A program made the translations under genes and the position numbers. Positions 717-64,000 of a stretch of 64,000 bases of DNA are shown here, one piece after another (the stretch's first letter is position 1; each line of letters begins with the position of its first letter). The stretch is from Acidobacteriota bacterium (lineage in GTDB: Bacteria > Acidobacteriota > Vicinamibacteria > Fen-336): assembly GCA_022340545.1 (NCBI GenBank), contig JAJDNV010000159.1:21872-85871 (forward strand), given 5' to 3'. The notes beneath the pieces were generated by a model. It saw only the letters and a list, made by a program, of their open reading frames with translations. It did not search any database and had not been told where the DNA came from.

Positions 717-2833
717 CGCTCCGGAGAGCCACCGGGGAGGTGGCCTTCGCCGGGGACTTCATGCGTCCGGGCGCCCTCCACCTGGCGATCCGGCGCTCGC
801 CGGTGGCCCACGGACGCGTCGTCGCGTCCGACACCACGGATGCGCGGGCCCTCCCCGGGGTGGTGGCAGCCCTGGCCGCGGAGGACACGGCGGGAGTCCT
901 CGATCCCGTGCTTCGCTTCGTCGGGGACCGCGCGGGGGTCGTGGCCGCAGAGGACGCCGACATCGCCCGGCACGCCGCGGACATGGTTCACCTCGTCGTG
1001 AAGCCGCTCCCGATCGTCCTCGATGCCGAGGCCGCACGGAAAGATCCGGAACAGGTCGCCGCCCGTTTCGATGTCGAGGTCGGCAACGTTGATGAGGCAC
1101 TCGCGATTGCGGATCACGTCGTCGAAGGGACGTGGACGGTCCCGGCCGCCCCGACGGTGACCCTGGATCCGCCCGTCACCCTGACCTGGCTCGACGACGA
1201 CCGTCGTCTGGTCGTCCGGACCTCGGCGGAGTCACCGTTCCGCGTGCGCCGGCTCCTGGCCGATCGCCTCGGCCTCCCCGCCGCCCGCATTCGCGTGATG
1301 CGGCCACTCGTGGCCGGAGGCGTGGGGGGCCGGCCCGACGTGCCGATCGAGGACCTCTGCGCCCTCGTCACGTTGCGGACGGGGCGTCCGGCACGCCTGG
1401 CGCTGACCGCCGAGGAGCTGCCGCTCTTCCCCGGCCGCCCCCCGCAGAGAATCGAGGTCCGACTGGCCGTGCAGGCCGGCCGCCTGAGCGCCCTCGCGCT
1501 GCGGCTGCTCGTGGACGTGGGCGCAGACTCGGAGGGGGCCGAGGCCCTGCTGAGATCCGCGGCCCGCCAGGCCCTCGCGCTCTACAGTGCCCCGAGCCTG
1601 CGCGTGGAGGCCGTCGCGGTGCGCACTCACCGGCCACCGACCAGCCGACGGCACGGGGCCGACGATGACGCCGCGTTCGCGGTCGAGTGCGCGATCGAGG
1701 AGGCCGCGCGGCAACTCGGAGAGGATCCAGTGAAGTTTCGTCGCCGGCAGCTGCGTCGACCCGGTCGGGGGTACGAGCTGCCCGGCGGGCTGGGCGAAGC
1801 CCCCGGAGCAGACGATGCGATGCCTCTCGACGCGTTGCTGGAGGCCGGAGTGCAGAAGGCCCGCTGGGGCCGACGGGATCGGGGGCGGGGAGCGCTCAGC
1901 CCGGTCCGGTGGGGGCTCGGGGTGGGGCTGGCCCGCCGCGCCGCCGGCGCAGCCGAGGGCACGGGAGCCGCGGCCACCCTCCGCCTCCTGGAAGACGGCT
2001 CGTTCACGCTCGCCGCGGCCCCGTCGTCCACGGGGGCAGCGGACGAAACGGTGTTCGCGTCGGCGGCGGCCAGCATGCTCGGCGTCCCGGCGCGGCGGGT
2101 GGTCCTCGCCGCCGCCGACACCGACTCTGCCCCGTTCGAAGCGGGTGACCACGCGCCCACCTTCCTCTCGACGGGCCGCGCGGTGGAGCAGGCGGCCGAG
2201 GTGGCACGGGAGCTGATCCGCAAGGCAGGCGCCGCCATGCTCGGCACGGACCCGGCCCGGGCCGAGGTGGTCGGCGGTGAGGTGCGTGCGGAGGATGGCC
2301 GTACCGCGAGCTTCGCGGCGATCGGAGCGGCAGCACTCGAGGCCGGCCAGCCCGTCGCCGCCACCGCGGTCCCCTCCATTGAGAACGCACCCCCGTCCGA
2401 TGCCGCCGTCTTCGCCGAGGTGGAGGTGGACACCGAGACCGGTGTGGTGCGCCCGCTTCGTCTCACCGCGGTCGCGGCCGGCGGTCCCTTCGCCGACCCG
2501 CGTCCCGCCGAGGCGCAGGTCGAGGGCGCGCTCGCCACCGCCCTCGAGCGTGCGCTCGCCGCAGCCCTTCCGGTGGATACCGAGGGCCGGCCGCTCGCCG
2601 GGTCCCTGCGCCGCTGGCCCCTCGTGGCCGCCGGTGACGTCCCGCCGATCGCGGTGACCTTCCTCCCGACGGACGACCCCTCGACACGCTTCGGGGCCAT
2701 GGCCGTGGGTGAGACGGCGGGTCGGGCAGCGGTGGCCGCGATCGCGGCGGCGGTTGCCCACGCATCGGGTGGAACGGTGAGGTCGCTGCCGCTCGACCCG
2801 GGGACGGTGCTGGACCTCCAGGCCGGCCGCTGA
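712..2833 (+). CDS. XDH/CODH/aldehyde-oxidase-family molybdopterin-binding large subunit (CoxL-like)
   Basis: GTG start overlaps the upstream stop (GTGA) and follows GGAGGGA. N-terminal Ald_Xan_dh-like region (GEVAFAGDF...AHGRVV..DTTDARALPGVVA) and AGGVGGRPD, a variant of the GGGFGGK motif. About 707 aa. Confidence 0.75.
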
Positions 2834-2865
2834 GACCCGGCCGCCAAGCTAGAATAGCGCCTCTC

Positions 2866-4149
2866 ATGGGTGAGTCGATGGCGTCCCGCCGTCCGGCGGA
2901 CCGGGTCCGTCGTCTCCTCTCCGCGATCGGGCCCGGGATCTTCATCCTGGGGTACATCATCGGCACCGGCAGCGTCACGTCGATGGCGAAGGCCGGCGCC
3001 GAGTACGGGATGACGCTGGCCTGGGCGATGGCGCTGTCGTGCTTCTGCACGTACGTGCTGATCGTCGCGGTCAGCCGCGTGACGATCGCCTCGGGACACA
3101 CTCTCATCCACTGTATCCGCCAGCAGTTCGGGTCGGCCGTGGCCATCGGCATCATCTTTGGACTGATGGCCACGGTCATCTCGTCGGTCATCGGCGTCAT
3201 GGGCATCGCAGCCGATGTCGCGCGGGAGTGGAGCGCCCAGGTCACCGGGAGCGCGGGCATCCCGCCCCTGGCTACCGCCGTGGTCCTGAACGGCATCCTC
3301 GGCTTCCTGATCTGGAAGGGCTCCCACGGTCTCTTCATGAGAGCCATGGCCGTGATCGTGGCCCTGATGGCACTCTGCTTCCTGGTGACGATGTTCATCG
3401 TCATTCCGGGACCGATGGAGCTGATCCGAAGCCTCAGACCGGCCATGCCCGCCCGATCGGAGATGCATCTGGTGCTGGCGGCGATGGTGGGGACCACGAT
3501 GGCCTCGGTCTGCGTCGTCACGAGGAGCTACCTGGTGGCGGAGAGGGGCTGGGGACGGAACGACTTGAGGGCGGAGAACCGGGATGCGATCGTCTCACTC
3601 AGCCTGACCTTCCTCGTGGGCGCCGCGATCATGGCGAGCGCGGCCGGCACGATGCTCCCGGCGGGAATCCCCGTCGTGGAGGCAATCGACATGGTCAAGA
3701 CGCTGGAGCCGCTGGCCGGACGGTTCGCCACCGCGCTGTTCGTGACGGGCATCATCGCCGCCGCGGTGTCCTCCCTGTTTCCCAACTACGTGCTGGGACC
3801 GTGGCTGGTCTGCGACTACATGAACGTTCCACGGAGGATGGACCGGGCGACGGTCCGCGTCGCCGTCGCGGCCGTGGCCTCGCTGGCCTTCGTGGTCCCC
3901 GTCTTCGGCGGCCGACCGGTCTTGATCATGATCGCCTCGCAGGCCGTCAGCACGGTGATCATGCCGGTGCTCATCCTCCTGTTGATGATCCTGCTGAACC
4001 GGTCGGCCGTCGTGGGTGACTACCGGAATCCGATGGCCCTGAATATCGGCCTGATCATCACGCTGGTCTTCGCCCTGGTGGTTTCGTACTCCGGTGCGCT
4101 CGGCCTGGTGGAGGGCGTGAATGAGATCCTCTTTCCATTGAAGGCGTGA
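2866..4149 (+). CDS. Nramp-superfamily membrane transporter with a non-canonical metal-binding site
   Basis: About 11 TM helices. The TM1 region GPGIFILGYIIGTGSVTSMAKAGAEYG aligns with the Nramp GPGFLVAIAYIDPGNFATD motif, but DPGN is replaced by GTGS and no MPH motif is seen. Confidence 0.7.
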   Translation: MGESMASRRPADRVRRLLSAIGPGIFILGYIIGTGSVTSMAKAGAEYGMTLAWAMALSCFCTYVLIVAVSRVTIASGHTLIHCIRQQFGSAVAIGIIFGLMATVISSVIGVMGIAADVAREWSAQVTGSAGIPPLATAVVLNGILGFLIWKGSHGLFMRAMAVIVALMALCFLVTMFIVIPGPMELIRSLRPAMPARSEMHLVLAAMVGTTMASVCVVTRSYLVAERGWGRNDLRAENRDAIVSLSLTFLVGAAIMASAAGTMLPAGIPVVEAIDMVKTLEPLAGRFATALFVTGIIAAAVSSLFPNYVLGPWLVCDYMNVPRRMDRATVRVAVAAVASLAFVVPVFGGRPVLIMIASQAVSTVIMPVLILLLMILLNRSAVVGDYRNPMALNIGLIITLVFALVVSYSGALGLVEGVNEILFPLKA

Positions 4150-6260: not shown

Positions 6261-6372
6261 CCCCCTCCCTCCCCACGTAGGGGGAGGGGAATGCTTGAGA
6301 TAGGCCTTGAACACCCGCGCGTCCCCAGGGAAAGGACACGCAGGCGAGCCTAGGCCTGGTGGCCAGCCGCAC
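6261..6372 (+). repeat. ~110-bp intergenic hairpin repeat element, copy A
   Basis: CCCTCCCCACGTAGGGGGAGGG palindrome plus GCGTGTCCCCAGGGAAAGGACACGC hairpin. Near-identical copies at 11786-11914 (inverted) and 36292-36408, partial copy at 50199-50233. Lies between convergent genes. Confidence 0.6.
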
Positions 6373-6407: not shown

Positions 6408-7373
6408 CTACTCGGCGGGGACTCTCCCGAAGAGCTCCAGGGCGTAGGCGAGGTCGACGTTCCCACCGGAGAGGACGAGGCCGACGCGGCGGCCCGCGAC
6501 CTCCACCTTGCCTTCCATGGCGGCGGCGAGGGCGAGGACCCCCGTCGGCTCGACGACCAGCTTCATCCGCTCCCACACGAACCGCATCGCTCGAATGAGG
6601 GCGTCGTCCGAGACGGTCACCATGTCGTCCACGTTCTCGCGGACGAGAGGAAAGGTGAGCTTCCCGAGCGACGGCGTCCGGGCTCCGTCGGCGATCGTCG
6701 GTGGGTTGTGGACGGTGTGGAGCTTGCCGGTCTTGAACGACCGCGTGGCGTCGTCGGCGGTTTCGGGCTCGGACCCGACGATCCGGCAGGAGGGGCTCAG
6801 CCGACGGGCCGAGAGCGCGCATCCCGAGAGCAGCCCCCCGCCGCCGCAGGGGACGACGAGGAGGTCGAGTTCGCCCACGTCCTCCAGCAGCTCCTTGCCC
6901 GCTGTCCCCTGACCCGCGATGACGTCGGCGTGGTCGTAGGGAGGGATGAGGACCGGGTGGCCCTTCTGCCGCAACTTCTCGGCGACATCCTCGCGCTTCT
7001 CCTTCTCGGGATCGTACGGGACGATGGTCGCCCCGTAGCCCTCGGTGGCCCGCCGCTTGGCGGCGGGGGCGTTCTCCGGCATGACGATGGTGATCGACAC
7101 CCCGAGCAGCCGGCTGGCCAGCGCGGTGGCCTGGGCGTGGTTTCCGGACGAGTAGGTGAGCACACCGCGCGCCCGCTCCTCGGGCAAGAGCCGGGCGATG
7201 GCGTTGTAGGCCCCACGGAACTTGAAGGCCCCGACCCGCTGGAGGTTCTCGCACTTCAGGAAGAGGTGGGCCCCCAGTCGCTCGTCGAGCGTCCGCGAGG
7301 TCGCGACCGGGGTCCGGTGAGCGATCCCCTTCAACCGCTCGGCGGCCCGGGCCACGTCGTCGAAGGTCACCAT
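6408..7373 (-). CDS. PLP-dependent serine/threonine dehydratase (fold type II; serine-racemase-like)
   Basis: MVTFDDVARAAERLKG...CENLQRVGAFKFRGAYNA (PLP lysine motif) and GGGGLLSG. Start chosen at the internal ATG at 7373. The ORF extends to 7445. Confidence 0.75.
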   Translation of the reverse strand: MVTFDDVARAAERLKGIAHRTPVATSRTLDERLGAHLFLKCENLQRVGAFKFRGAYNAIARLLPEERARGVLTYSSGNHAQATALASRLLGVSITIVMPENAPAAKRRATEGYGATIVPYDPEKEKREDVAEKLRQKGHPVLIPPYDHADVIAGQGTAGKELLEDVGELDLLVVPCGGGGLLSGCALSARRLSPSCRIVGSEPETADDATRSFKTGKLHTVHNPPTIADGARTPSLGKLTFPLVRENVDDMVTVSDDALIRAMRFVWERMKLVVEPTGVLALAAAMEGKVEVAGRRVGLVLSGGNVDLAYALELFGRVPAE

Positions 7374-7475
7374 GAAACCCGTACATATCACAGCGGGTCG
7401 GTCGGCTCGTGGGGTGAGGTGCTTATTCGCCCTCACGGCCACCACTGAGCCGCCGTTCGAGCGAGCCCACCGCCC

Positions 7476-11785: not shown

Positions 11786-11914
11786 TGGGTACCGGTGCGA
11801 CTGGACTCCAGGCCAGGCCCATCCGCGTGTCCCTTCCCTGGGGACACGCGGATGTGCGTGGCCTATCTCAAGCCTTTCCCTCCCCCTACGTGGGGAGGGA
11901 TAGGGTGGGGGGTC
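11786..11914 (-). repeat. ~110-bp intergenic hairpin repeat element, copy B (inverted orientation)
   Basis: Reverse complement matches copy C over GACCCCCCACCCTATCCCTCCCCACGTAGGGGGAGGGAAAGGCTTGAGATAGGCCACG, then CGCGTGTCCCCAGGGAAGGGACACGCGG. Between convergent genes. Confidence 0.6.
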
Positions 11915-25415: not shown

Positions 25416-26525
25416 CTAAGGGGGCGGCTCGGAATGACACAGGCGTCGGTAGAGGGTGAGGAGGCGGCCGATCGTCTCGTCGCGGGGGAAGCTGGGCGGG
25501 AGGACGATCCGGCGGTTGACCGCCTCGGCGATCGCCCGAGCCAGGGCCTCCACATCGCCCCAGGGGACGAGCCCGATGCCCGGGTGCCACTCGCGGACTC
25601 CCCCGGACTCCCACGCGGCCACCGGCACCCCGAAGCTGAACGCTTCGATGCCGATGATCCCGAAGGGCTCCTGCCAGCGCGACGGCAGCACCAGTGCGCG
25701 GGCCCGACGATAGAGGGACGACAGGCGCTGGCGACTCACCCAGCCCAGGACCTCGATGGGCGGACCCGAGGACGCCCTCGCCTGTGAGAGGAGCTCCTCG
25801 CGGAGGGGGCCGGTGCCGGCGACCACCAGGGGCAGCTCCACCCCCGATCGCCGCCAGGCCTCGACCGCCTCGAGGACTCCCTTCGCCGCGACCAGGCGCC
25901 CGACGAAGAGGACGCACGGCGGCCCGTCCGGCGCCGCGGCACGGTCGAGGTCGTGGACGAACGGCGGAATCACCCGGATCCGCTTGGTGGGCACACCCAC
26001 CCTCACCAACTCCTCGCGCATGTATCGCGAGAGGACGGTGACCGCCTCCATCGCCCGCACCGCGGCCAGCCGTCGCTCCGTGAGAGCAAGGACCTCGCGG
26101 AAGTAGGCCTCGTCCTCGAAGCAGGGGGCGCAGGTCTCTCGCCCCATCGCCAGCCGGCACTCTTCGCCCCCGAGGGTCCATTTTCCGCGGGCCGGACAGA
26201 AGGACCGGTGATCCTGGATCGTGAGAAGGGCGTTCGGGCGCCCCGCCGCCCACTCGAGCACGGCCGGGTTGACCACGTTGTGCACGTGGATGACCTCGGG
26301 ACCGAAGGAGCGGACGAGCGAGTCCAGGTTGATCCACGCCCCGGTCCGCGCTTCGAGCCCGGGCCGCACGTCGACCGGACACGGGGCGGACACGTTGCCG
26401 TCGACGGCGCCCACCACGAGCCGGGCGTTGTGTCCGGCCTCGACGAGGCCCGCGATGACGCCGAGCATCCAGGTGCAGGCCCCGCCGCGGTCGGTCAACC
26501 GGTCGGCCACGTGAAGGATCCGCAT
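25416..26525 (-). CDS. glycosyltransferase family 4 (GT-B, RfaB-like)
   Basis: MRILHVADRL... N-terminus and a C-terminal E-x7-E-like region (EPFGIIGIEAFSFGVPVAA). Confidence 0.75.
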   Translation of the reverse strand: MRILHVADRLTDRGGACTWMLGVIAGLVEAGHNARLVVGAVDGNVSAPCPVDVRPGLEARTGAWINLDSLVRSFGPEVIHVHNVVNPAVLEWAAGRPNALLTIQDHRSFCPARGKWTLGGEECRLAMGRETCAPCFEDEAYFREVLALTERRLAAVRAMEAVTVLSRYMREELVRVGVPTKRIRVIPPFVHDLDRAAAPDGPPCVLFVGRLVAAKGVLEAVEAWRRSGVELPLVVAGTGPLREELLSQARASSGPPIEVLGWVSRQRLSSLYRRARALVLPSRWQEPFGIIGIEAFSFGVPVAAWESGGVREWHPGIGLVPWGDVEALARAIAEAVNRRIVLPPSFPRDETIGRLLTLYRRLCHSEPPP

Positions 26526-26650
26526 GAGGGCACTCAGGGTAGCCGTCTCCTGCGGCTCGCCAATGTGATGTGGGGCACCGTTAGAATGGGCGTTCATGGT
26601 GCGCCGGGTGGGCTTCGACCGTCTCGGCCTCGTGCAAGGAGGCGAACCCG

Positions 26651-27861: not shown

Positions 27862-28881
27862 ATGTCGTCGACGCCACAGTGGTACATGGCCGTGGGTGGC
27901 CAGCAGGTCGGGCCCGTGTCCGAGGAAGACATCACCAACAACATCAAGAACGGCAGCGTCGACGCCGAGACCCTGGTCTTCATCGCGGGGATGGACGGCT
28001 GGACGCCGCTCAAGGCCGTGCCCAAGTTCGCGTCCCTGCTCGGCCCGATCGCTCCGCCGCCGATGCCTGCCTCGGCCCGGCGCTCGGACATCATCGACTA
28101 CAAGATCAAGGGCGAGGATGTTCAGTTCGTCGAGATCGAGCTCGACCCTGGCGAGGCCTGCGTGGCGGAGGCCGGGGCCATGATGTACATGACCGCCGGC
28201 ATCCAGATGGACACGATCTTCGGCGACGGGAGCGGCCGGCAGAAGCCCGGGATCATGGGTGCGCTGCTCGGCGCGGGCAAGCGCGTCCTGACCGGGGAGA
28301 GCCTCTTCATGACCGTCTTCTCTTCGCACGGTCGCGCGAAGGAGAGGGTGGCCTTCGCCGCGCCCTACCCGGGCCGGATCCTCGCCATGGAGCTTCCCGA
28401 GCTGGGGGGCGAGCTCATCTGCCAGAAGGACTCCTTCCTCTGCGCGGCCAAGGGCGTGGCCATCAGCATCGCCTTCCAGAAAAAGATCGGCGTGGGCCTC
28501 TTCGGCGGAGAGGGCTTCATCATGCAGCGTCTCCTGGGCGATGGGCTCTGCTTCGTCCACGCCGGGGGCATGCTCCACGAGCTGCAGCTCGGGGCGGGCG
28601 AGACGCTCCGGGTGGACACCGGCTGCCTCGTCGCGCTCCAGCCCAGTGTCGGCTATGACGTCCAGTTCGTGGGCGGCATCAAGACGGCCTTCTTCGGCGG
28701 GGAGGGGCTGTTCTTCGCCACCCTCACCGGGCCCGGCCGGGTGTGGCTGCAGTCGCTGCCGCTGAGCCGCATGGCGGACCGGATCTACAAGGCCGCGCCC
28801 CAGACCGGAGGCAGCCGCAAGGGCGAGGGCTCCATCCTCGACGTCGTCGGGGGCCTGGGCAACATGATCGACGGCGACTAA
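27862..28881 (+). CDS. AIM24-family (TIGR00266-like) protein with N-terminal DUF4339/GYF-like domain
   Basis: N-terminus [18 protein letters not shown]. The remainder matches the AIM24 pattern (GESLFMTVF...[22 protein letters not shown]). Confidence 0.7.
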
Positions 28882-28964
28882 TCGTTCCGGGAACGCCAGC
28901 TGAGCCGACGTTCCCGGAACAGTCCGCTAGGGGAGTGCACGCTGGTTCTCTTCTGAGCTTCGAC

Positions 28965-36291: not shown

Positions 36292-36408
36292 GACCCCCCA
36301 CCCTATCCCTCCCCACGTAGGGGGAGGGAAAGGCTTGAGATAGGCCACGGACACCCGCGTGTCCCCAGGGAGAGGACACGCGGGCGAATCCCGGCCTGGT
36401 GGCCAGCG
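36292..36408 (+). repeat. ~110-bp intergenic hairpin repeat element, copy C
   Basis: Same element as copies A and B. Between convergent zupT and msrB. Confidence 0.6.
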
Positions 36409-36411
36409 TCC

Positions 36412-37014
36412 CTAGTCGTCTTGCTTCTCGAAGTCGAGGCTCGCGGAGTTGATGCAGTAGCGCAGGCCGGTCGGTCTGGGCCCGTCGTCGAAGACGTGTC
36501 CGAGGTGCCCGCCGCAGCGCCGGCAGAGAACCTCGATCCGACGCATGCCGAGGGTGCTGTCGTCCTTCGTTTCGACGTTCTCCCTGGCCACAGGGGCATA
36601 GAAGCTGGGCCAGCCGGTGCCGGACTCGAACTTCGTCTCCGAGGTGAAGAGGTCGGCGCCACAGGCGGCGCACTTGTAGACGCCCTTCTCGTGGTTGTCC
36701 CAGTAGCGCCCGGTGAAGGCCCTCTCAGTCCCCTTCTCCCGCAGCACCCTGTACTGCTGGGGTGAAAGGGTCTCCTTCCAATCCTGCTGGCTCTTGACCA
36801 CCTTGTCGGACACGACGAACCCCCCCTCCTCGACCGAGAACAGGCGCACGGTCCCCTGGCCTTCGCCCGCCGACACTTCCTCACCGGGAGCCGCGGCCTG
36901 GACAATTCCTGCGGACAGCAGTCGCTCGGGATCTCCCGGGCCCGGACGGAACGCCAAGAGCCACACCAGGGCGGTGATCGCGACGGCGGTGGCGTAGATC
37001 AAGGTCTTTCTCAT
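36412..37014 (-). CDS. msrB: peptide methionine (R)-S-oxide reductase MsrB with N-terminal membrane anchor/signal
   Basis: SelR motifs CAACGADLF...[16 protein letters not shown]...RYCINS. Start at the ATG at 37014 (MRKTLIY). Confidence 0.85.
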
Positions 37015-37210
37015 GGACTCTCCCGGGGCGGAGACCCGCACATCCCCCTACCATGGTGCAACGCCGGGAGGCCACTCGCCATTCCCGGCGGGACGACGAC
37101 CCGTGGGGGCGTAGGTGGTGTATGCTGCGGCATCGTTCCAGGTCAGACGTCCGGCGGCCCCCGCGGAGCAGGGGTTTTTCCTCGCCTGCGGGGCCGGGGA
37201 GGCGACGAAG

Positions 37211-39928
37211 ATGAGCCTGAAGTCCGGCCAGCGCCTCGGGCCCTATGAGATCGAGTCCCCACTCGGCGCGGGAGGCATGGGCGAGGTGTACCGCGCCCAG
37301 GACACACGCCTGGGTCGCTCCGTCGCGATCAAGGTGCTCCCGGCCCACCTGGCCGAGCACCCGCAGCGCCGCGAGCGCTTCGAGCGGGAGGCCAAGGCGG
37401 TCGCCGCCCTCAGCCATCCCCACATCTGTGCGCTCTACGACGTGGGCGAGGAGGACGGCGTCTCCTTCCTCGTCATGGAGCACCTCGAGGGCGAGAGCCT
37501 CGCCGAGCGGCTGTCCCGGGGAGCGCTGCGCCTCGACCAGCTCCTGAAGATCGGAGCCGAGGTGGCGGGCGCCCTCGACCGGGCCCATCGGGCCGGCATC
37601 GCTCACCGCGACCTCAAGCCCGGCAACGTCATGCTCACGAAATCCGGGGCCAAGCTGCTGGATTTTGGCCTCGCCAAGAGCGGGCTGGCCGAGCCGGAGC
37701 GGACGGAGTCGAGCGCGCCGACCGAGGCCGCTCCGGGGGTGGCTCCCCAGGATACGAGCGCCCCGACCGAGGCCAAGCCGCCCCTCACCGAGGCGGGAGC
37801 CGTGCTCGGCACCTTCCAGTACATGGCCCCCGAGCAGCTCGAGGGAGAGGAGGCGGACGCACGAGCCGACATCTGGGCCCTCGGCTGCCTGCTCTACGAG
37901 ATGGCCACAGGGAGCCCTCCCTTTGCCGGGAAGAGCCAGGCCAGCCTCATCAGCAGCATCATGCGGGACGTGCCGGTGCCGGTCGGGGAGCGGCAACCCC
38001 TCACCCCGTCCTCGCTCGAGCACGTGATCGCCCGGTGCCTGGAGAAGGACCGCGAGGACCGCTGGCAGTCGGCCCACGACGTCGCGGAGGAGCTGACCTG
38101 GATCCAGCGCGCGGGCGGGCGGGACGCGACACCGTCGGTGGAAGCCGGGAAGACGCCGCGCCGACCGGGGACGAGCCGGATGGCCCTCGCGGCCGCGGCG
38201 GCGGCCGTCGCCGGGGCGGTGCTTGGCTACGCGCTGGGGTGGGGCCGCACGGAGACGACCGGCGCGGCGAGCTGGAGCGCGCAGCAGCTGACTTTCCAGA
38301 AGGGCGTCGAGAATCACCCCGCGCTGTCGCCGGACGGCCGTCAGGTCGCTTACGTGAGCGAGGCCTCCGGCAACGCCGACATCTACCTCCAGCGCGTCGA
38401 CGGGCGCAACGCCATCAACCTGACGAAGGACTCCCCGGCCGCAGACACCGAGCCCGCTTTCTCGCCGGACGGGAGCCAGATCGTGTTCCGCTCCGAGAGG
38501 GGCGGCGGCGGGATCTTCGTGATGGGAGCCACCGGGGAGTCGGTTCGGCGCATCGGCGACCTGGGCTACAACCCCAGCTGGTCCCCCGACGGCCGCCGGG
38601 TGGTGGTCTCTACGGAGAGAGTCGCCGACCCCCTGAGCCGCCAGGCCACCGCCGCCGAGCTATGGACGGTCGACCTCACCTCCGGGGAGACCCGCCGGAT
38701 CTACGCCGGCGACTCCGTCCAGCCGGCGTGGTCACCCGACGGTCGCTGGATCGCCTTCTGGCGGGTGGACGGCAACTCCGGCCAGCGCGACCTCGCCACC
38801 ATCGACGCGGAGGGCACGGGCGAGTCGGCCGCGGTCACGACCGATGTGCCCGTCGACTGGAATCCAGTCTGGTCGCCCGACGGGCGTCACATCTACTTCG
38901 TGAGCGACCGGGCCGGCACCATGAACGTGTGGCGGGTGGCGATCGATCCGGAGACAGGCGGCGCGGACAGCGAGCCGGTGATGGTGGGAACGCCGGCGGA
39001 GGACGTGGCCTGGCTCTCGGTGGCGAGAGAAGGGGGGAACCTCGCGTACGTCTCACGCTCGGCCCTGCACTACCTCCACTCGTTCCCGCTCGACCCGGAG
39101 CGGCTCCGGCCCGCCGGCGAGGCACGGACAGTCCTCGCCGGGGCCCTGCCGATCCGGTACACCCACCCGTCGCCCGACGGGGCCTCGATCGCGCTGACGA
39201 CCGCGGGAAGCCGCGAAGACCTCTACGTTCTGCAGAGCGACGGGGGCGAGTTCCGGCAGCTCACCGACGACCCCTTCCGGGATCGCGGCCCCCAGTGGTC
39301 GCCCGACGGCTCCGAGATCGCCTTCTATTCCAACCGCTCGGGGACGTATCAGGTCTGGAGCATCCGGCCGGACGGCAGCGGTCTGCGGCAGCTGACGGAC
39401 GTCGCCGATGGGGCGTGGTTCCCGTACTGGTCGCCGGATGGGAAGCGGATTGCCTTCCCCACCGGGAGGGGCACCTGTCTCGTCACCGTCGGTGACGCTC
39501 CGGTGTCGACGGCGGAGTGCCTGCCCGACCTGTCGGCGGACCAGTGGTACGAGGTGCGCGACTGGTCGCACGACGGCCGCTGGCTGGTCGGAAACGCGTC
39601 GCTGCGTGCGGGCGCCGTCCGCCCGGACCTCCTGCTCTGGTCCTTCGACGCCGAGGAGTACCAGCCGATCGAGCATCCCGGGTTCGTGGCACGATGGCTC
39701 CCGGACTCGCGGAATCTCGTCGTGATCGGAGACGACGGGCGCCTCACCCTGGTGGACCACACGACGGGCACCGCCCGCGACGTCGGACGCATCGAGAGCA
39801 GCGGCACGGTCGACCGGGAGCAGATGGGCCTGTCCCGCGACGGCCGCACCGTGCTCGCCCAGGCCAAGTCTCTCGAAGCCAACATCTGGGTTCTCTCGCC
39901 GCCAGAAGATTCCGAGTCCGACGACTAG
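37211..39928 (+). CDS. Ser/Thr protein kinase fused to a C-terminal TolB-like PD40 beta-propeller
   Basis: Hanks motifs (GAGGMGEVYRA, HRDLKPGN, DFGLAK, APEQ), a TM segment, multiple SPDG...PD40 repeats. ATG at 37211 after GGGGAGG. The C-terminal ...SESDD overlaps a hairpin repeat motif. Confidence 0.8.
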   Translation: MSLKSGQRLGPYEIESPLGAGGMGEVYRAQDTRLGRSVAIKVLPAHLAEHPQRRERFEREAKAVAALSHPHICALYDVGEEDGVSFLVMEHLEGESLAERLSRGALRLDQLLKIGAEVAGALDRAHRAGIAHRDLKPGNVMLTKSGAKLLDFGLAKSGLAEPERTESSAPTEAAPGVAPQDTSAPTEAKPPLTEAGAVLGTFQYMAPEQLEGEEADARADIWALGCLLYEMATGSPPFAGKSQASLISSIMRDVPVPVGERQPLTPSSLEHVIARCLEKDREDRWQSAHDVAEELTWIQRAGGRDATPSVEAGKTPRRPGTSRMALAAAAAAVAGAVLGYALGWGRTETTGAASWSAQQLTFQKGVENHPALSPDGRQVAYVSEASGNADIYLQRVDGRNAINLTKDSPAADTEPAFSPDGSQIVFRSERGGGGIFVMGATGESVRRIGDLGYNPSWSPDGRRVVVSTERVADPLSRQATAAELWTVDLTSGETRRIYAGDSVQPAWSPDGRWIAFWRVDGNSGQRDLATIDAEGTGESAAVTTDVPVDWNPVWSPDGRHIYFVSDRAGTMNVWRVAIDPETGGADSEPVMVGTPAEDVAWLSVAREGGNLAYVSRSALHYLHSFPLDPERLRPAGEARTVLAGALPIRYTHPSPDGASIALTTAGSREDLYVLQSDGGEFRQLTDDPFRDRGPQWSPDGSEIAFYSNRSGTYQVWSIRPDGSGLRQLTDVADGAWFPYWSPDGKRIAFPTGRGTCLVTVGDAPVSTAECLPDLSADQWYEVRDWSHDGRWLVGNASLRAGAVRPDLLLWSFDAEEYQPIEHPGFVARWLPDSRNLVVIGDDGRLTLVDHTTGTARDVGRIESSGTVDREQMGLSRDGRTVLAQAKSLEANIWVLSPPEDSESDD

Positions 39929-39930
39929 AC

Positions 39931-39969
39931 CATTCCGAGTTCGACGGCCAGCTCAGCGAACTCGGAATT
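39931..39969. terminator. bidirectional terminator-like hairpin (single copy of the TTCCGAGTYCG hairpin repeat)
   Basis: 11-bp perfect stem TTCCGAGTTCG/CGAACTCGGAA with a 13-nt loop, exactly between the convergent stops at 39928 and 39968. Confidence 0.5.
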
Positions 39970-40903
39970 AGAAGAGACTGAGCTTGATGTACTTCTTCGG
40001 CTTCGTGCGGACGTCCTCGAGAAGCGCGCGGATCTCGACCGCGGCCTTGTCGAAGTTGGCGGCGGCGCTCGAGACGTTGTCGTAGAGCGCCTCGTCGGTG
40101 CTCAGCTTGCCGAGGGTCCCCTCCCCGCGGTCGACGCGGCCGAGGATGGACTCGAGCGACTGCGACGAGCGATCGAGGCCGGAGAGAACCTCGTCCATCC
40201 GGGAGGCGACCTCCTCCACCCGCTTCACCGTGTTCTCGATCTCGGGGCCGGTCGTGACCTTCTCGAGCCCCTCCGCCGAGCGGCGAAGGCTCTTCGTCAG
40301 CGCCTTGAGCTCGCCCCGCTGCTCCCTCACCGTACCCGAGAGCTGCTCGAGCAGCTGGCGGGCCTCGCCCGCCGTACCGTGCAGGTTGCTCACCATCTCG
40401 TCGGAGAGCAGTGCCTTCAGGCGGGCGGCCACGTCGTCCGCCTCTCCGGCGAGCGAGTCCATCTTGTCGAAGAGGCCCACGCCGCTCCGCCCCTCGAGGA
40501 CGTCGCCCCAGACCGCGGTCTCCGAGGAAGAGCCCGGGATCACGTCGGCCACGAGCCCGCCGAGGAGGCCGCTGGCCTTGAGCTCCACCACCGAATCCCG
40601 GGGGACCGAGTACTCGCCTTCGATCTCGAGACGGACCTCGACCTCGTCGGTGCTGATCTTGAACCCCAGGATGCGGCCGATGTTGACCCCCCGCATCTGT
40701 ACGGGGTCGCCCTTTCGGATTCCCGCCGCGTCGGGAACGATCGTGCTCACGATGTAGCGGCCCCGGAAGAGGGCGGCGTCGGTCATCGTCGAGAGAACGA
40801 TCAGGACCCCGGCCAGGCCCGCTACCACGAAGAGACCGACCCAGATCTCCCGTCGGCGACGGCGAAGCTGCGGCGGGGTGGGCAGGGGCTTGTCGGTGCT
40901 CAC
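39968..40903 (-). CDS. mlaD: MlaD (MCE-domain) lipid-asymmetry ABC system substrate-binding protein
   Basis: N-terminal TM then MCE domain (VQMRGVNIGRILGFKISTDEVEVRLEI). Downstream of mlaE and mlaF. Confidence 0.8.
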   Translation of the reverse strand: MSTDKPLPTPPQLRRRRREIWVGLFVVAGLAGVLIVLSTMTDAALFRGRYIVSTIVPDAAGIRKGDPVQMRGVNIGRILGFKISTDEVEVRLEIEGEYSVPRDSVVELKASGLLGGLVADVIPGSSSETAVWGDVLEGRSGVGLFDKMDSLAGEADDVAARLKALLSDEMVSNLHGTAGEARQLLEQLSGTVREQRGELKALTKSLRRSAEGLEKVTTGPEIENTVKRVEEVASRMDEVLSGLDRSSQSLESILGRVDRGEGTLGKLSTDEALYDNVSSAAANFDKAAVEIRALLEDVRTKPKKYIKLSLF

Positions 40904-50198: not shown

Positions 50199-50233
50199 GC
50201 GTCCCCCGAGCCCCCTACGTGGGGAGGGACTCA
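50199..50233 (-). repeat. partial copy (first palindrome only) of the ~110-bp hairpin repeat
   Basis: CCCCCTACGTGGGGAGGGA between convergent LOG and SPFH genes. Confidence 0.4.
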
Positions 50234-61065: not shown

Positions 61066-61848
61066 GTGAGTGCCTTGTCCGGCCGCGACCTGGGCCCTGG
61101 CTTCGCCGCATCCGGCTGGCCTGCGGACGAGGCCCGGCGACTCGCGGGACTGATCGAGCTCTTCCTGAGCCTGCCCGGCCCCGCGATCCCGGGAGGCTCG
61201 TTCCCGGATTTTGCCCGGCTTCAGGACCGCCTCGAGACCTCGGTTCGGGGCAACGACCCCGAGGCGATCGAGGAGAGGCTGCTCGAGCTCTACGCCCACC
61301 TCCACATGAACGAGGCCCCCTACTCCGCCGACGAGCGTCGGCGGATGGACGCCGCCGGGGGCTACTGGAATCACGCCGGCGGCCTGAGCCCGCTCCTCAA
61401 GGCGGCGCCGTGGATCGACGAGCACACGGCGAGCGTCGATTTCGGCGCAGGGAACGGCCTGCAGGGCCTGCTGCTCCAGGTCCTGTGTCCTCACGCCCGC
61501 ACCGTCCAGATCGAGATCTCCGCCCGGATGGCCGAGATCGGGGAGGCGCTGCGGGAGTGGCTCGGCGTGTCACCGGATCGGGTGGACTGGGTCGTCGACG
61601 ATGTCCGGAATGTCCCGGCCACCGGGTACGGCTTCATCTACCTCTACCGCCCGGTCCGCCCGGATGGTCCGGGTCGTGACTTCTACACACGCTTCGCCCG
61701 CGAGGTCGAGTCCGAGGCCCGGCCCCCCGTGATCTTCTCCATCGCGGACTGCCTGCGGGGCTTCCTGTCGGACAGATACGAGGTCTTCTACGGCGACGGC
61801 CACCTGACGTGCTTCCGGCCGGTGGACTATTCCGAGTCCGACTCGTGA
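61066..61848 (+). CDS. class-I SAM-dependent methyltransferase-like protein
   Basis: Motif I VDFGAGNGLQG. GTG start. The C-terminal ...DYSESDS overlaps a hairpin repeat. Confidence 0.55.
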   Translation: MSALSGRDLGPGFAASGWPADEARRLAGLIELFLSLPGPAIPGGSFPDFARLQDRLETSVRGNDPEAIEERLLELYAHLHMNEAPYSADERRRMDAAGGYWNHAGGLSPLLKAAPWIDEHTASVDFGAGNGLQGLLLQVLCPHARTVQIEISARMAEIGEALREWLGVSPDRVDWVVDDVRNVPATGYGFIYLYRPVRPDGPGRDFYTRFAREVESEARPPVIFSIADCLRGFLSDRYEVFYGDGHLTCFRPVDYSESDS

Positions 61849-62023
61849 CCCAGCGGACTCGGAATGAAACGGAAGAAGAAGCTCCGAGTCCGGCTCCCGC
61901 TTCTGCGGACTCGGAATGAGAGGAAACGGAAGGTTCCGAGTTCGAGGCCCGACTCGGCGGACTCGGAACGATGAGAGGAACGGACTATTCCGAGTTCGAC
62001 GTCGGTACACCGAACTCGGAATG
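61828..62023. repeat. tandem array of four ~48-bp units, each a hairpin with conserved 10-12-bp stem (TTCCGAGTYCG / CGRACTCGGAA) and a variable 12-13-nt loop
   Basis: Units start near 61828, 61883, 61931 and 61981. Conserved linker ATGA(N)AGGAAACGGAAG. Single copy at 39931-39969, fragment near 63325-63345. Confidence 0.6.
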
Positions 62024-62028
62024 ATTAG

Positions 62029-63297
62029 CTAGAAGTACCAGGCCAGCTGGAGAAAGAGGCCCGGTCCCCGGGACAGGTACTGGCCAGGCACATCGGTTGC
62101 GATTCCTCCGAACTCGGTGCCGTCCGGACCGACCGGGAGGTTGAAGGCCCCCAGGAGCACCAGGTCCTGCTTGAGGTCGTTCTTCGTCGCCAGCTGGATC
62201 AGGGCGCTGCCGTCGGACAGGTTGGTGAAGACGGTCGGCGTGAGATGGAACAGGGGGTGGAGCTCGATCAGGGCACTGCCGGCGACGTAGTGCTGCCCGA
62301 GGGTGAAGAGCTCGCCCCGAACGACGCGCCGGAGCAGCGCCGGGTTCGCGGCCAGGCTGTCGGGGTCGTACTGGCCATCGGGCTGCCCGAAGCCGTTGAA
62401 GAAATACTCCACGACCCCGCTGAGATTCTTCCCGCCCCACACCCACGAGTAGCTCAGGCTCGTGACCGCGGAGAAGACCGTGCCTTCGTCGGTGAAGGTG
62501 ACGACCGCGTCGCCGCGCCAGACCGCGCCGCCGAGGCTCTGGCTGCCACCCCCGGCCAGGAGGGGATCGGCGAAGTGCCGGGCCACGAGGACGTCAAACT
62601 CGCTGCCCCCGCTCAGCCCGTGGTACTTGAGGGCGAACGAGCACCAGTCGGCGTCGACCTTGCCGGTCTCGAGATTCCGCCGAAGCACCGCCACCCCCTG
62701 GAGGTCGTCGCCGCTCCCACGCAGGTACTGCCCGTAGAGCATGTCGTCGCCGGTCTTGTACTCCTTGTCGACGGCGGCGGGGTCGAAGGGGTTGAAGATG
62801 TCCATGGGCGTGTAGATCATCCCGTTGCCCCAGCTGATGGCCTGGCGACCGAACCGAACCACCGCCTTCTCCCCGGAGTAGCCGATCGACCCCCGGTCGA
62901 GCCGCTGCACGATCGCCGCGCGTCCCTCGTCCCGGAAGACGTAGGTCAGGTTGAACAGCCGGGTGTCGTCCTGCGGAAGCCGAGCGACGAGCCGGAGCAC
63001 TGGCGGGAAGTCTCGGGTGAAGTCGATCGTGTCACCGAAGAGACCCACCAGCTGGTAGCCGACGTCGAGGTTCCAGGGTCCACGATCGACGTCGAGGTTG
63101 AGCCGCAGGTCGAGGTTCTGGTCCAGGGCCTGGCTCCCGGTCAGCTCCCGGAACAGGCTTCCCTCCGGGTAGGCGGTCGCGACGAGCTGGTACTTGACGT
63201 GCCCGCCGAACTCCACGGTCGTCCCCTGGGCGAGGGCGGGGCCAGACGACAAGAGGATGAGGAGAGCGCTCGAGAAAGTCATCCTGACGAGTCTCAT
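62029..63297 (-). CDS. outer-membrane beta-barrel-like protein of unknown function
   Basis: Signal peptide MRLVRMTFSSALLILLSSGPALAQG. Alternating amphipathic strands, C-terminal ...LQLAWYF. The ORF-track N-terminal extension to 63969 is Arg/Pro-rich junk. Confidence 0.55.
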   Translation of the reverse strand: MRLVRMTFSSALLILLSSGPALAQGTTVEFGGHVKYQLVATAYPEGSLFRELTGSQALDQNLDLRLNLDVDRGPWNLDVGYQLVGLFGDTIDFTRDFPPVLRLVARLPQDDTRLFNLTYVFRDEGRAAIVQRLDRGSIGYSGEKAVVRFGRQAISWGNGMIYTPMDIFNPFDPAAVDKEYKTGDDMLYGQYLRGSGDDLQGVAVLRRNLETGKVDADWCSFALKYHGLSGGSEFDVLVARHFADPLLAGGGSQSLGGAVWRGDAVVTFTDEGTVFSAVTSLSYSWVWGGKNLSGVVEYFFNGFGQPDGQYDPDSLAANPALLRRVVRGELFTLGQHYVAGSALIELHPLFHLTPTVFTNLSDGSALIQLATKNDLKQDLVLLGAFNLPVGPDGTEFGGIATDVPGQYLSRGPGLFLQLAWYF

Positions 63298-63383
63298 CTT
63301 GGAGCGTGCGACGAAGAGTCCACCGATGCCGCCAACGGTGGATTCCTCGCCCGACCGTTCACGCAGGCGGGCTCGGAATGACT

Positions 63384-64000
63384 TCAGGCCGCCTCCTGCT
63401 CCGTGTCGTCGACGATCCTGCCGTCCAGCATGCGGACGATGCGACGCGCGTAGCCCATCACGCGCTGGTCGTGGGTGGCGATCACGAAGGTGGTCTCGTG
63501 GCGGGTGTTGAGCTCGACGAACAGCTCCATCAGCTGCTCCGCGGTGTGTGAGTCCAGGTTGGCCGTGGGCTCGTCGGCGAGGACGAGGGTGGGACGCGAG
63601 GCGATGGCGCGGGCGACCGCCACCCGCTGCTGCTGGCCCCCTGACATCTTGGCCGGTCGCCGGTCCTCCAGGCCCTTGAGCCCCACCTCCTCCAGAATCT
63701 CCATGGAGCGCGCGCGGCGCTGGTCGGGGGGGACCCCCTGGACCTCCATGACGAACTCCACGTTCTCGCGCGCGGTCAGCACCGGGATCAGGTTGTAGGC
63801 CTGGAACACGAAGCCGATCTGGTGAAGCCGGAGGCTGGCGAGCTCGCCCTTTCCCAGTCCGTCGATACGCCGGTCGGCGAGCCAGATCTCGCCGCTGTCG
63901 ATCCGGTGGAGGCCACCGATGGCGTTGAGGAGCGTCGTCTTGCCGCCGCCGGAGGGCGCAGAGAGACACACGAAGCCTCCCTCCCCGACCTCGAGGCTGA
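63384..64000 (-). CDS. ABC transporter ATP-binding protein (LolD/MacB-type), 5' end beyond the window
   Basis: Walker A LSAPSGGGKTT, signature MSGGQQQRVAVARA, Walker B LVLADEPT, H-loop ATHD. Confidence 0.8.
   Translation of the reverse strand, partial: SLEVGEGGFVCLSAPSGGGKTTLLNAIGGLHRIDSGEIWLADRRIDGLGKGELASLRLHQIGFVFQAYNLIPVLTARENVEFVMEVQGVPPDQRRARSMEILEEVGLKGLEDRRPAKMSGGQQQRVAVARAIASRPTLVLADEPTANLDSHTAEQLMELFVELNTRHETTFVIATHDQRVMGYARRIVRMLDGRIVDDTEQEAA

Follow-up and report, generated by a model that had tools for sequence, protein, structure and literature searches.

Dispersed palindromes at the 3' ends of bacterial genes have been described as repetitive extragenic palindromic (REP) sequences, and it is documented that REPs can lie less than 20 bp downstream of an open reading frame (ORF), can supply stop codons or residues, and can form head-to-tail clusters; in other phyla, this kind of placement has been taken to argue for roles at 3' ends (PMC3733652). 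No REP family of the Acidobacteriota appears in the survey of Di Nocera et al. 2013 (PMC3733652). Here we describe an element found in a stretch of 64,000 nucleotides (nt) from an Acidobacteriota bacterium (contig JAJDNV010000159.1 of assembly GCA_022340545.1, positions 21,872 to 85,871; the whole stretch, with a base composition of 70% G+C, is called the window). Four copies of this element, each a hairpin, follow one another where a methyltransferase-like gene and a gene for an outer membrane protein (OMP)-like product converge. We find that these hairpins belong to a REP-like family in a narrow clade of uncultured Acidobacteriota, and that the element is polar, its gene being on the strand opposite to the one on which an earlier reading of this DNA, made from the letters alone (the original prediction), had focused. 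The family probably acts as a strand-specific, polar RNA hairpin at 3' ends.

The unit is a dispersed short palindrome of ~52 bp, made up of a hairpin of 35 bp (34-36 bp) and a linker of 15-20 nt. Like REPs in general, which are dispersed palindromes of 20-40 bp (PMC3733652), it occupies gaps between co-directional or convergent genes at less than 20 bp from where the upstream ORF ends; stop codons or residues come from some copies, units are reiterated in clusters, and the family is restricted to one lineage. It differs from them in including a purine-rich linker, GGAACGGAAG, and in its low copy number (~10 exact sites per metagenome-assembled genome, MAG). The two REP superfamilies of Di Nocera et al. 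are named after their GTAG and CGTC tags (PMC3733652), whereas the element is without an unpaired GTAG or CGTC, the latter tetranucleotide being present only at the junction of loop and stem, and is flanked by (T)CA or CG on one side and by GGAACGGA-nn on the other; since it has neither tag, it stands outside both superfamilies. The CGTC families, moreover, have stems of 8-9 bp and loops of 4-5 nt (PMC3733652), whereas the element has an 11-bp stem and a 12-14-nt loop with a consensus of its own. With the REPINs and their REP-associated tyrosine transposases (RAYTs) described by Bertels and Rainey in 2011 (PMC3116915), the element shares short palindromes that persist vertically in a lineage and have conserved stems. 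REPINs are inverted REP doublets, however (PMC3116915), whereas most sites of the element are single units, and units that adjoin each other form 11 direct, head-to-tail arrays as against only 3 inverted pairs, all of which lie at convergent gene pairs with each unit facing its own gene. A further difference is that a crude regular expression for HUH...Y-x-x-N-P, run in six frames, revealed no RAYT-like ORF for the element in 466 kb.

In Escherichia coli, the bacterial interspersed mosaic elements (BIMEs) and the REPs near stop codons have documented roles at the RNA level. E. coli REPs were reportedly connected with mRNA stabilisation by Newbury in 1987 and with termination by Espeli in 2001, and those at most 15 nt from a stop codon are said to lower translation through tmRNA, a finding attributed to Liang, Rudd and Deutscher in 2015. 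As in E. coli, palindromic units of the element are clustered at the 3' ends of genes and separated by defined linkers, many of them within reach of a ribosome at the stop codon. The sequences are unrelated, however, and BIME units alternate, whereas the arrays of the element are all in one orientation; likewise, the stop-near REPs of E. coli are a subset, whereas proximity to a stop codon is the rule for the element. A looser parallel is with the loci of mycobacterial interspersed repetitive units (MIRUs) with variable numbers of tandem repeats, which Supply et al. are said to have described in Mycobacterium in 1997: these, too, are units of ~50 bp in direct tandem that lie in short gaps between genes, follow the orientation of the genes beside them, vary in number between related genomes and overlap stop codons, but MIRUs are not based on hairpins and their sequence is unrelated, so that this is an analogy only. 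Finally, the Rickettsia palindromic elements and intragenic REPs are palindromic repeats that add residues to unrelated proteins (PMC3733652); the element does the same, except that it touches only the extreme 3' ends (3-12 residues) and is not an in-frame internal insertion as the Rickettsia elements are.

The original prediction had left open whether the motif was peculiar to the window. It is instead a dispersed repeat. The exact palindrome was sought in one genome per species of the GTDB database (596 Gb), for which our own estimate is about one chance match to the pattern, and 23 loci were found. Seventeen of these come from three MAGs of uncultured Acidobacteriota, and the best-sampled of the three, MFD09779.bin.2.31, has 9, on 5 contigs. 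A scan of metagenome contigs of the Joint Genome Institute (JGI) gave 52 further loci, all from a few related sample series, and merging left 80 distinct units at 62 non-redundant sites, whose hosts are uncultured Acidobacteriota MAGs or metagenome contigs of unassigned organism only. Four loci in Planctomycetia (numbered L003, L007, L013 and L014 in our collection) were not counted as the same family and were set apart, since their loops have 16 nt, their stem is extended by GGAC/GTCC, they show no signal of polarity and their context is low in GC; these Pirellula-like loci carry identical 11-bp arms without the Acidobacteriota flanks and represent an unrelated or very distant family. Single matches in Chthoniobacterales and Gemmatimonadota were treated as possible chance matches. 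The genes abutted by the hairpin are unrelated housekeeping genes (among others, those for a sigma-54 activator, TldD/PmbA, Ku, PurH, a sulfatase, MlaD, an SSF symporter, GT2 and Fe-ADH), and a Pfam scan of 40 of them showed no common function and no transposase; the associated nuclease or transposase that had been suggested as worth seeking was not found among these 40 flanking genes.

The evidence for polarity comes from several features of the sites. A covariance model, R1, built from 26 units, gave scores of 50-70 bits on one strand and of 20-30 bits on the complement. In the aligned units, the conserved GGAACGGA-nn is present on one side of the hairpin only, with TGA, TGT or CGA on the other; the loop is also directional, with A-Y-G at its start and G at its end, and the linker-free side of the hairpin abuts the stop codon of the gene on the opposite strand. 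On the sense strand the order is stop codon, 0-7 nt (often TCA), TTCCGAGTYCG, a loop of 12-14 nt, CGRACTCGGAA, and a U/C-rich tail, UCCGUUYCC, which is sometimes reiterated; the first 10 nt of this tail contain 41% T and 36% C, compared with 15% T in the window overall. With gene calls based on ORF length and on the G+C content of third codon positions (GC3), at 38 of the 62 sites a long, high-GC3 ORF on the sense side has its stop 0-11 nt ahead of the hairpin (mode, 3 nt); at 5 sites the stop falls inside the element, and at another 6, several of which have an intervening half-copy, it is 12-30 nt away. A stop within 30 nt is found on the sense side at 49/62 sites and on the opposite side at 6/62. 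Because features of the flanks could make this polarity circular, the orientation was reassigned from the loop alone, which is independent of the flanks, and the abutting gene was then on the predicted side in 35 of the 36 informative sites (35:1). The original prediction had asked whether arrays always sit at convergent 3' ends; they do not, as many sites lie between co-directional genes separated by a spacer of 150-700 nt, and there the element is still placed against the upstream stop; a divergent context was recorded at one of the 22 tabulated Acidobacteriota-type sites, and depends on a doubtful call of a 76-aa ORF. Given this polarity, the array of the window is attached to the OMP-like gene, a copy at 39.9 kb to mlaD, and a copy at 63.36 kb to a gene for an ABC-transporter ATPase, and the plus-strand genes emphasised by the original prediction, encoding the methyltransferase-like protein and a kinase, are bystanders that have been invaded from their 3' end.

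The array itself occupies positions 61830-62021, just as originally placed, and consists of four head-to-tail hairpins with 11-bp stems, TTCCGAGTYCG/CGRACTCGGAA, and loops of 13, 13, 13 and 12 nt. All units and linkers are assigned to the minus strand. Unit 4 (61988-62021, loop ACGTCGGTACAC, 12 nt) lies 7 nt past the stop of the OMP-like gene (62029-63297, -), whose product ends in ...LAWYF and has a weak, sub-threshold match to DUF1302, and the array follows this stop directly in sense orientation. It is separated by linker 3 (61969-61987, CGATGAGAGGAACGGACTA) from unit 3 (61934-61968, 63 bits), which has the arms TTCCGAGTTCG/CGGACTCGGAA with one T-G pair and the loop AGGCCCGACTCGG. Linker 2 (61917-61933, TGAGAGGAAACGGAAGG) leads to unit 2 (61882-61916, 38 bits), with the loop GCTCCCGCTTCTG and a left arm, CTCCGAGTCCG, that has one mismatch; the stem consensus first given for the four units stands as to its 11-bp arms, apart from this arm, which is off by one. 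Linker 1 (61865-61881) reads TGAAACGGAAGAAGAAG on the plus strand and forms the U/C-rich tail of unit 2 on the minus strand, and unit 1 (61830-61864, 55 bits), the most distant from the OMP-like gene, has the arms TTCCGAGTCCG/CGGACTCGGAA and the plus-strand loop ACTCGTGACCCAG. The linkers are purine-rich. Successive units start 52, 52 and 54 bp apart, not 48 bp as first reported, and Tandem Repeats Finder detected a single array at 61830-62001 with a period of 52 and 3.3 copies. The arm motif, with at most one mismatch allowed, occurs 13 times in the window against 4.4 expected, a number reached in none of 100 shuffles, and the array folded as RNA has an energy of -99 kcal/mol (z = -4.75). On the far side of the array, the methyltransferase-like gene (61066-61848, +; sub-threshold match to Methyltransf_25) has its stop codon, TGA (61846-61848), within the loop of unit 1, and its last ~8 codons (VDYSESDS) and stop are encoded by the element.

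Across the 80 units, 864 of the 880 stem cells are Watson-Crick pairs (98%), and several stem positions show compensated variants: position 9 is C-G in 42 units, T-A in 30, G-C in 3 and A-T in 2; position 8 is T-A in 74 and A-T in 5; position 3 is C-G in 76 and G-C in 3; and position 2 is T-A in 72 and C-G in 4. In a stringent, model-derived alignment 99.8% of the cells are paired, and no shuffle matched the observed pairing or covariation score. Loops had been described as variable and of fixed length; they do vary, being 12-14 nt long and mostly 13, but they share one consensus, AYGYCCRRGGCGG for the 13-nt class, three positions of which are more than 80% conserved, and they are kept at orthologous loci. 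In six orthologue pairs, stems were identical at 130/132 positions and loops at 55/66, with fourfold-degenerate sites 60-81% identical, a comparison biased by the fact that the motif itself had led to both loci of every pair. For this reason conservation was assessed again on loci found through their proteins, and for the window compared with L024 and L080 the stems were identical at 42/44 positions, the loops at 17/25 and the fourfold-degenerate sites at 123/228. The stem sequence itself, beyond its pairing, is therefore held far above the neutral level, and conservation so far past that of neutral sites would imply a sequence-specific partner, which would be a protein or a machinery that copies the element; homogenisation among copies would be the other cause. 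There is also a subfamily with a longer, conserved flank, GGGCCCCGGGGTTCCAAACGKA, before the hairpin and a conserved loop, ATGTCCGASGGGG, in which the GGGG of the loop and the CCCC of the flank could pair as a pseudoknot (L005, L029, L030, L032, L034, L040, L044, L052, L053, L058, L064, L068, L069, L070, L072 and L078).

The second main site of the window is a single unit at 39933-39967 (-; 57 bits; plus-strand loop ACGGCCAGCTCAG), which begins 0 nt past the stop of mlaD (gene 39968-40903, -; TAA 39968-39970) and, as had been noticed, fills the whole gap between this stop and that of a convergent Ser/Thr kinase-PD40 gene (37115-39928, +; stop 39926-39928). Next to it, a half-unit at 39910-39925 (-), consisting of the left arm TTCCGAGTCCG (39910-39920) and ACGAC, forms the last kinase codons, SESDD, as was also seen originally; it is apparently what remains of a second unit, which in the orthologous locus L017 is complete but diverged. 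The two main sites of the window have their orthologues in L017 and L019, which share a contig of MFD09779.bin.2.31, and comparison of orthologous loci shows how unit numbers vary. Unit counts at the OMP site are 4 for the window, 3 for L019, at least 3 for L050 and 1 for L024; unit 4, which corresponds to the sole unit of L024, is the stop-proximal founder of the window array, and unit 3 is missing from the L019 array as a clean 53-nt indel. At the mlaD site the counts are 1.5 for the window, 2 for L017 and 4 for L077, where all four loops are identical, which indicates recent tandem duplication. These comparisons show that arrays arise and shrink through duplication and loss of units, and that they can grow backwards into the convergent gene, which is then endowed with C-terminal residues encoded by the element and sometimes with the element's TGA. 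Both window sites are kept at orthologous positions in genomes whose fourfold-degenerate sites are 52-74% identical, and at such a distance this conservation indicates that the sites are old and vertically inherited.

The tails of the bystander proteins, ...VDYSESDS for the methyltransferase-like protein and ...EDSESDD for the kinase, are as the original prediction gave them, and its proposal that the element contributes C-terminal residues is borne out by comparison with homologues. The conserved core of the methyltransferase-like protein ends in ...GDGHLTCF[KR]P(R), at which many homologues stop, and the tails that others have beyond it are variable; at this locus the hairpin is found only in close relatives, with at least ~78% amino acid identity (L024 and L080), and is absent or replaced in more distant homologues. 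Linker, left arm and loop together encode the tail VDYSESDS. The L024 ORF continues through the whole hairpin (...VDYSEFDVRTPNSE) and ends at the element's TGA, with the stop of the OMP gene on the next base. As for the kinase, the orthologue in L017 ends in ...LSLPDASE, 222 nt before the repeat, whereas in the window the 222-nt spacer is gone and the ORF runs into the half-unit, giving ...PPEDSESDD. The element-derived C-terminal residues are accordingly a side effect of array growth or of deletion at convergent gene pairs. In L017 the spacer between the kinase orthologue and the REP-like units is filled by another dispersed repeat (GTCATCCTGAGC...GCGAGGATCTC and relatives; ~7230-7300, -), which also occurs in L080 at ~1890-1960 and 3620-3820. 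The ...AGEHSEF tails of distant methyltransferase-like homologues were considered as possibly derived from the element and rejected, as they come from a different structure, a long hairpin of tandem GAGTTTT heptamers and their complement after the methyltransferase-like gene (L083 2100-2197 and L085 6785-6880), which yields the tail ...EHSEF.

How, then, might the element work? In the model that we favour with some confidence, the element would be transcribed as the 3' end of the gene it abuts, and the hairpin with its pyrimidine tail would end the transcript and/or protect it from 3' exonucleases, while insulating the neighbouring gene; such roles are documented for the REPs of enterobacteria. 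In the window, the genes served would be the OMP-like gene (by the array), mlaD (by the 39.9-kb copy) and the ABC ATPase gene (by the 63.36-kb copy). With Rho-independent terminators the element shares a predicted stable, G+C-rich hairpin right after the gene, a tail enriched in U and a dependence on orientation. Several observations weigh against the 3'-end model. The loops of 12-14 nt exceed those of typical intrinsic terminators, and the tail, with ~4 U in 10 nt mixed with C and G, is not a canonical U-tract. A consensus terminator scan, designed for loops of 3-8 nt, did not call the hairpins because their loops are too long, and returned only a minor alternative hairpin in linker 1. A generic terminator needs no exact 11-bp sequence, whereas one exact stem recurs here across dozens of loci, and something else constrains or homogenises the sequence. 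The stem mismatches comprise 6 G-T and 6 A-C, with no strand bias, and give no support to selection on an RNA from one strand; the ~9-10 exact copies per MAG are far fewer than in classical REP families; and the polarity is the sole pointer to a role at the RNA level. Nor did a search for an empty orthologous site, carried out through the homologues P0002, P0005, P0010, P0016, P0023, P0029 and P0050, yield a filled-versus-empty pair: L024 and L080 carry the hairpin, and L026, L027, L081, L082, L084 and L085 have lost synteny.

Two variants of an RNA-level role deserve mention. A hairpin 0-7 nt from the stop codon falls inside the footprint of a ribosome terminating there, and may therefore influence translation termination or the rescue of ribosomes, as has been reported for E. 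coli REPs near stop codons. Alternatively, instead of being a generic terminator, the hairpin may be what a dedicated trans-acting factor recognises; such a factor, an RNA-binding protein or a nuclease, would define or process the 3' ends of mRNAs in this Acidobacteriota lineage, within reach of a ribosome at the stop codon. This proposal would explain the conserved 11-bp sequence, the length and consensus of the loop, the strand specificity and the distance of 0-7 nt to the stop, and arrays would then be multivalent binding platforms; nevertheless, we regard it as quite unlikely.

An explanation that is compatible with the 3'-end model, and possible if taken as the sole one, though rather improbable, is that the element is a selfish, non-autonomous REP or REPIN without a host function, moved in trans by a transposase of the RAYT (HUH/Y1) or another type, its proximity to stops and its orientation reflecting the choice of target site and the purging of harmful insertions. 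Identical stems at many unrelated loci and loops that descend from one consensus are what such mobility would produce; the (T)CA or CG that usually precedes the hairpin resembles the defined end of an element, the loop of unit 3 in the window is unlike those of its neighbours and absent from the orthologous array, as a new insertion would be, and REP families of other phyla are mobilised by RAYTs (PMC3116915, PMC3733652). However, the motif scan for RAYTs, crude as it was, remained empty over the 466 kb, the 40 scanned flanking genes include no transposase, and units stand singly or head-to-tail rather than as REPIN doublets. The window sites, moreover, are old and vertically inherited and yet retain intact stems, and transposition through a single strand predicts an orientation bias related to replication, not one of 35:1 relative to the adjacent gene.

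The lack of G-U bias among the mismatches would equally suit a site recognised as DNA, in which a dimeric protein (nucleoid-associated, of the gyrase/IHF type as at the BIMEs of E. coli, or a specific regulator) binds the 11-N13-11 palindrome as double-stranded DNA or a cruciform and so organises supercoiling or domain boundaries at gene ends. Conservation of the sequence and not of pairing only, the spacing fixed at 12-14 nt with a partly conserved loop, and the CGGAA motifs reiterated in the linkers point in the same direction. Yet a symmetric operator gives no reason for strict orientation or for a distance of 0-7 nt to the stop, compensatory changes in both arms suit intrastrand pairing better than independent half-sites, and no functional theme of the kind expected of a regulon unites the abutted genes; we consider a DNA-level site very unlikely. 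As to a CRISPR-like or other adaptive array, in which the loops would be acquired spacers, only the regular alternation of conserved and variable segments favours it, and the original prediction had rightly called this appearance superficial. CRISPR arrays have direct repeats of 24-48 bp with unique spacers of similar length, whereas here each pair of "repeats" belongs to a single hairpin, as its arms, and the "spacers" are loops of 12-14 nt with a shared consensus that are conserved at orthologous loci. In addition, most sites are dispersed single units after unrelated genes, a motif scan of 2.9 million viral contigs gave 0 matches, Rfam gave none at gathering thresholds over the whole window and only chance-level ones (E of at least 0.014) at permissive E-values over 61700-62150, and no cas-like gene was seen among the flanking genes scanned. 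The adaptive-array explanation is effectively refuted.

With the copies that follow, the window holds 4 sites and 2 half-copies in its 64 kb. The sequence reported as a fragment near 63330 does exist, although it is located at 63366-63379 and is the left arm of a full, imperfect hairpin. This diverged unit (63343-63378, -; TTCCGAGCCCG..CGGGCGAGGAA; 13 bits, E 0.12) lies 5 nt past the gene for the ABC-transporter ATPase (63384-63998, -; stop codon TGA), and its tail is TCCACCGTTGG. Two more copies had escaped the original prediction. A variant unit at 28885-28919 (+; 11 bits), with a compensated stem, TTCCGGGAACG/CGTTCCCGGAA, a 13-nt loop and the tail CAGTCCGCT, follows 3 nt after the TAA of an AIM24/GYF_2 gene (27862-28881, +). 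A half-copy at 25423-25437 (-), which reads TCATTCCGAGCCGCC on the minus strand, is contained in the last codons of a GT4 glycosyltransferase gene (25416-26597, -), whose protein ends in ...CHSEPPP and is thus the third in the window with a tail derived from the element.

Other repeats were also seen in the window and at related loci. A second palindromic family, CTCCCCACGTAGGGGGAG (stem CCCTCCCC/GGGGAGGG), occurs 4 times where 0.2 copies would be expected, in each case a short way past the end of a gene (6269-6286, +; 11880-11897, -; 36309-36326, +; and 50209-50226, -). The third repeat is a long, G+C-rich inverted repeat (AGGCCAGGCCCATCCGCGTGTCCC / GGGACACGCGGATGTGCGTGGCCT) at 11810-11864 that is also present downstream of the genes at 36412-37041 (-) and 6408-7445 (-), and its position beside copies of the second family at three loci suggests a composite element. 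In L080, an IS110-family transposase gene (1997-3187, -; PF01548 and PF02371) lies ~120 nt from the hairpin at 1849-1883, at a locus where relatives have the OMP-like gene, and within a cluster of a different repeat (GTCATCCYGAGG... / GGAGAGATTCTTCGGGC).

In summary, location at gene ends, overlap with stop codons, encoded residues and tandem clusters are all precedented among REP-like repeats, and the element does not change the current understanding of bacterial repeats. It is distinctive in its unusually clean polarity, its larger and partly conserved loop, and its low copy number. For annotation, the motif marks true gene ends and explains the odd tails SESDS, SESDD, HSEPPP and SEFDVRTPNSE in unrelated proteins of these MAGs, and the variable numbers of units at orthologous loci could serve as strain markers. 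The element extends the REP-like palindromes of gene ends to uncultured Acidobacteriota, as a new sequence family with no counterpart catalogued in the main survey of REPs. The orientation of 35:1 and the modal distance of 3 nt argue that repeats of this kind exert their effect on the upstream gene's transcript, or are under selection by way of it.

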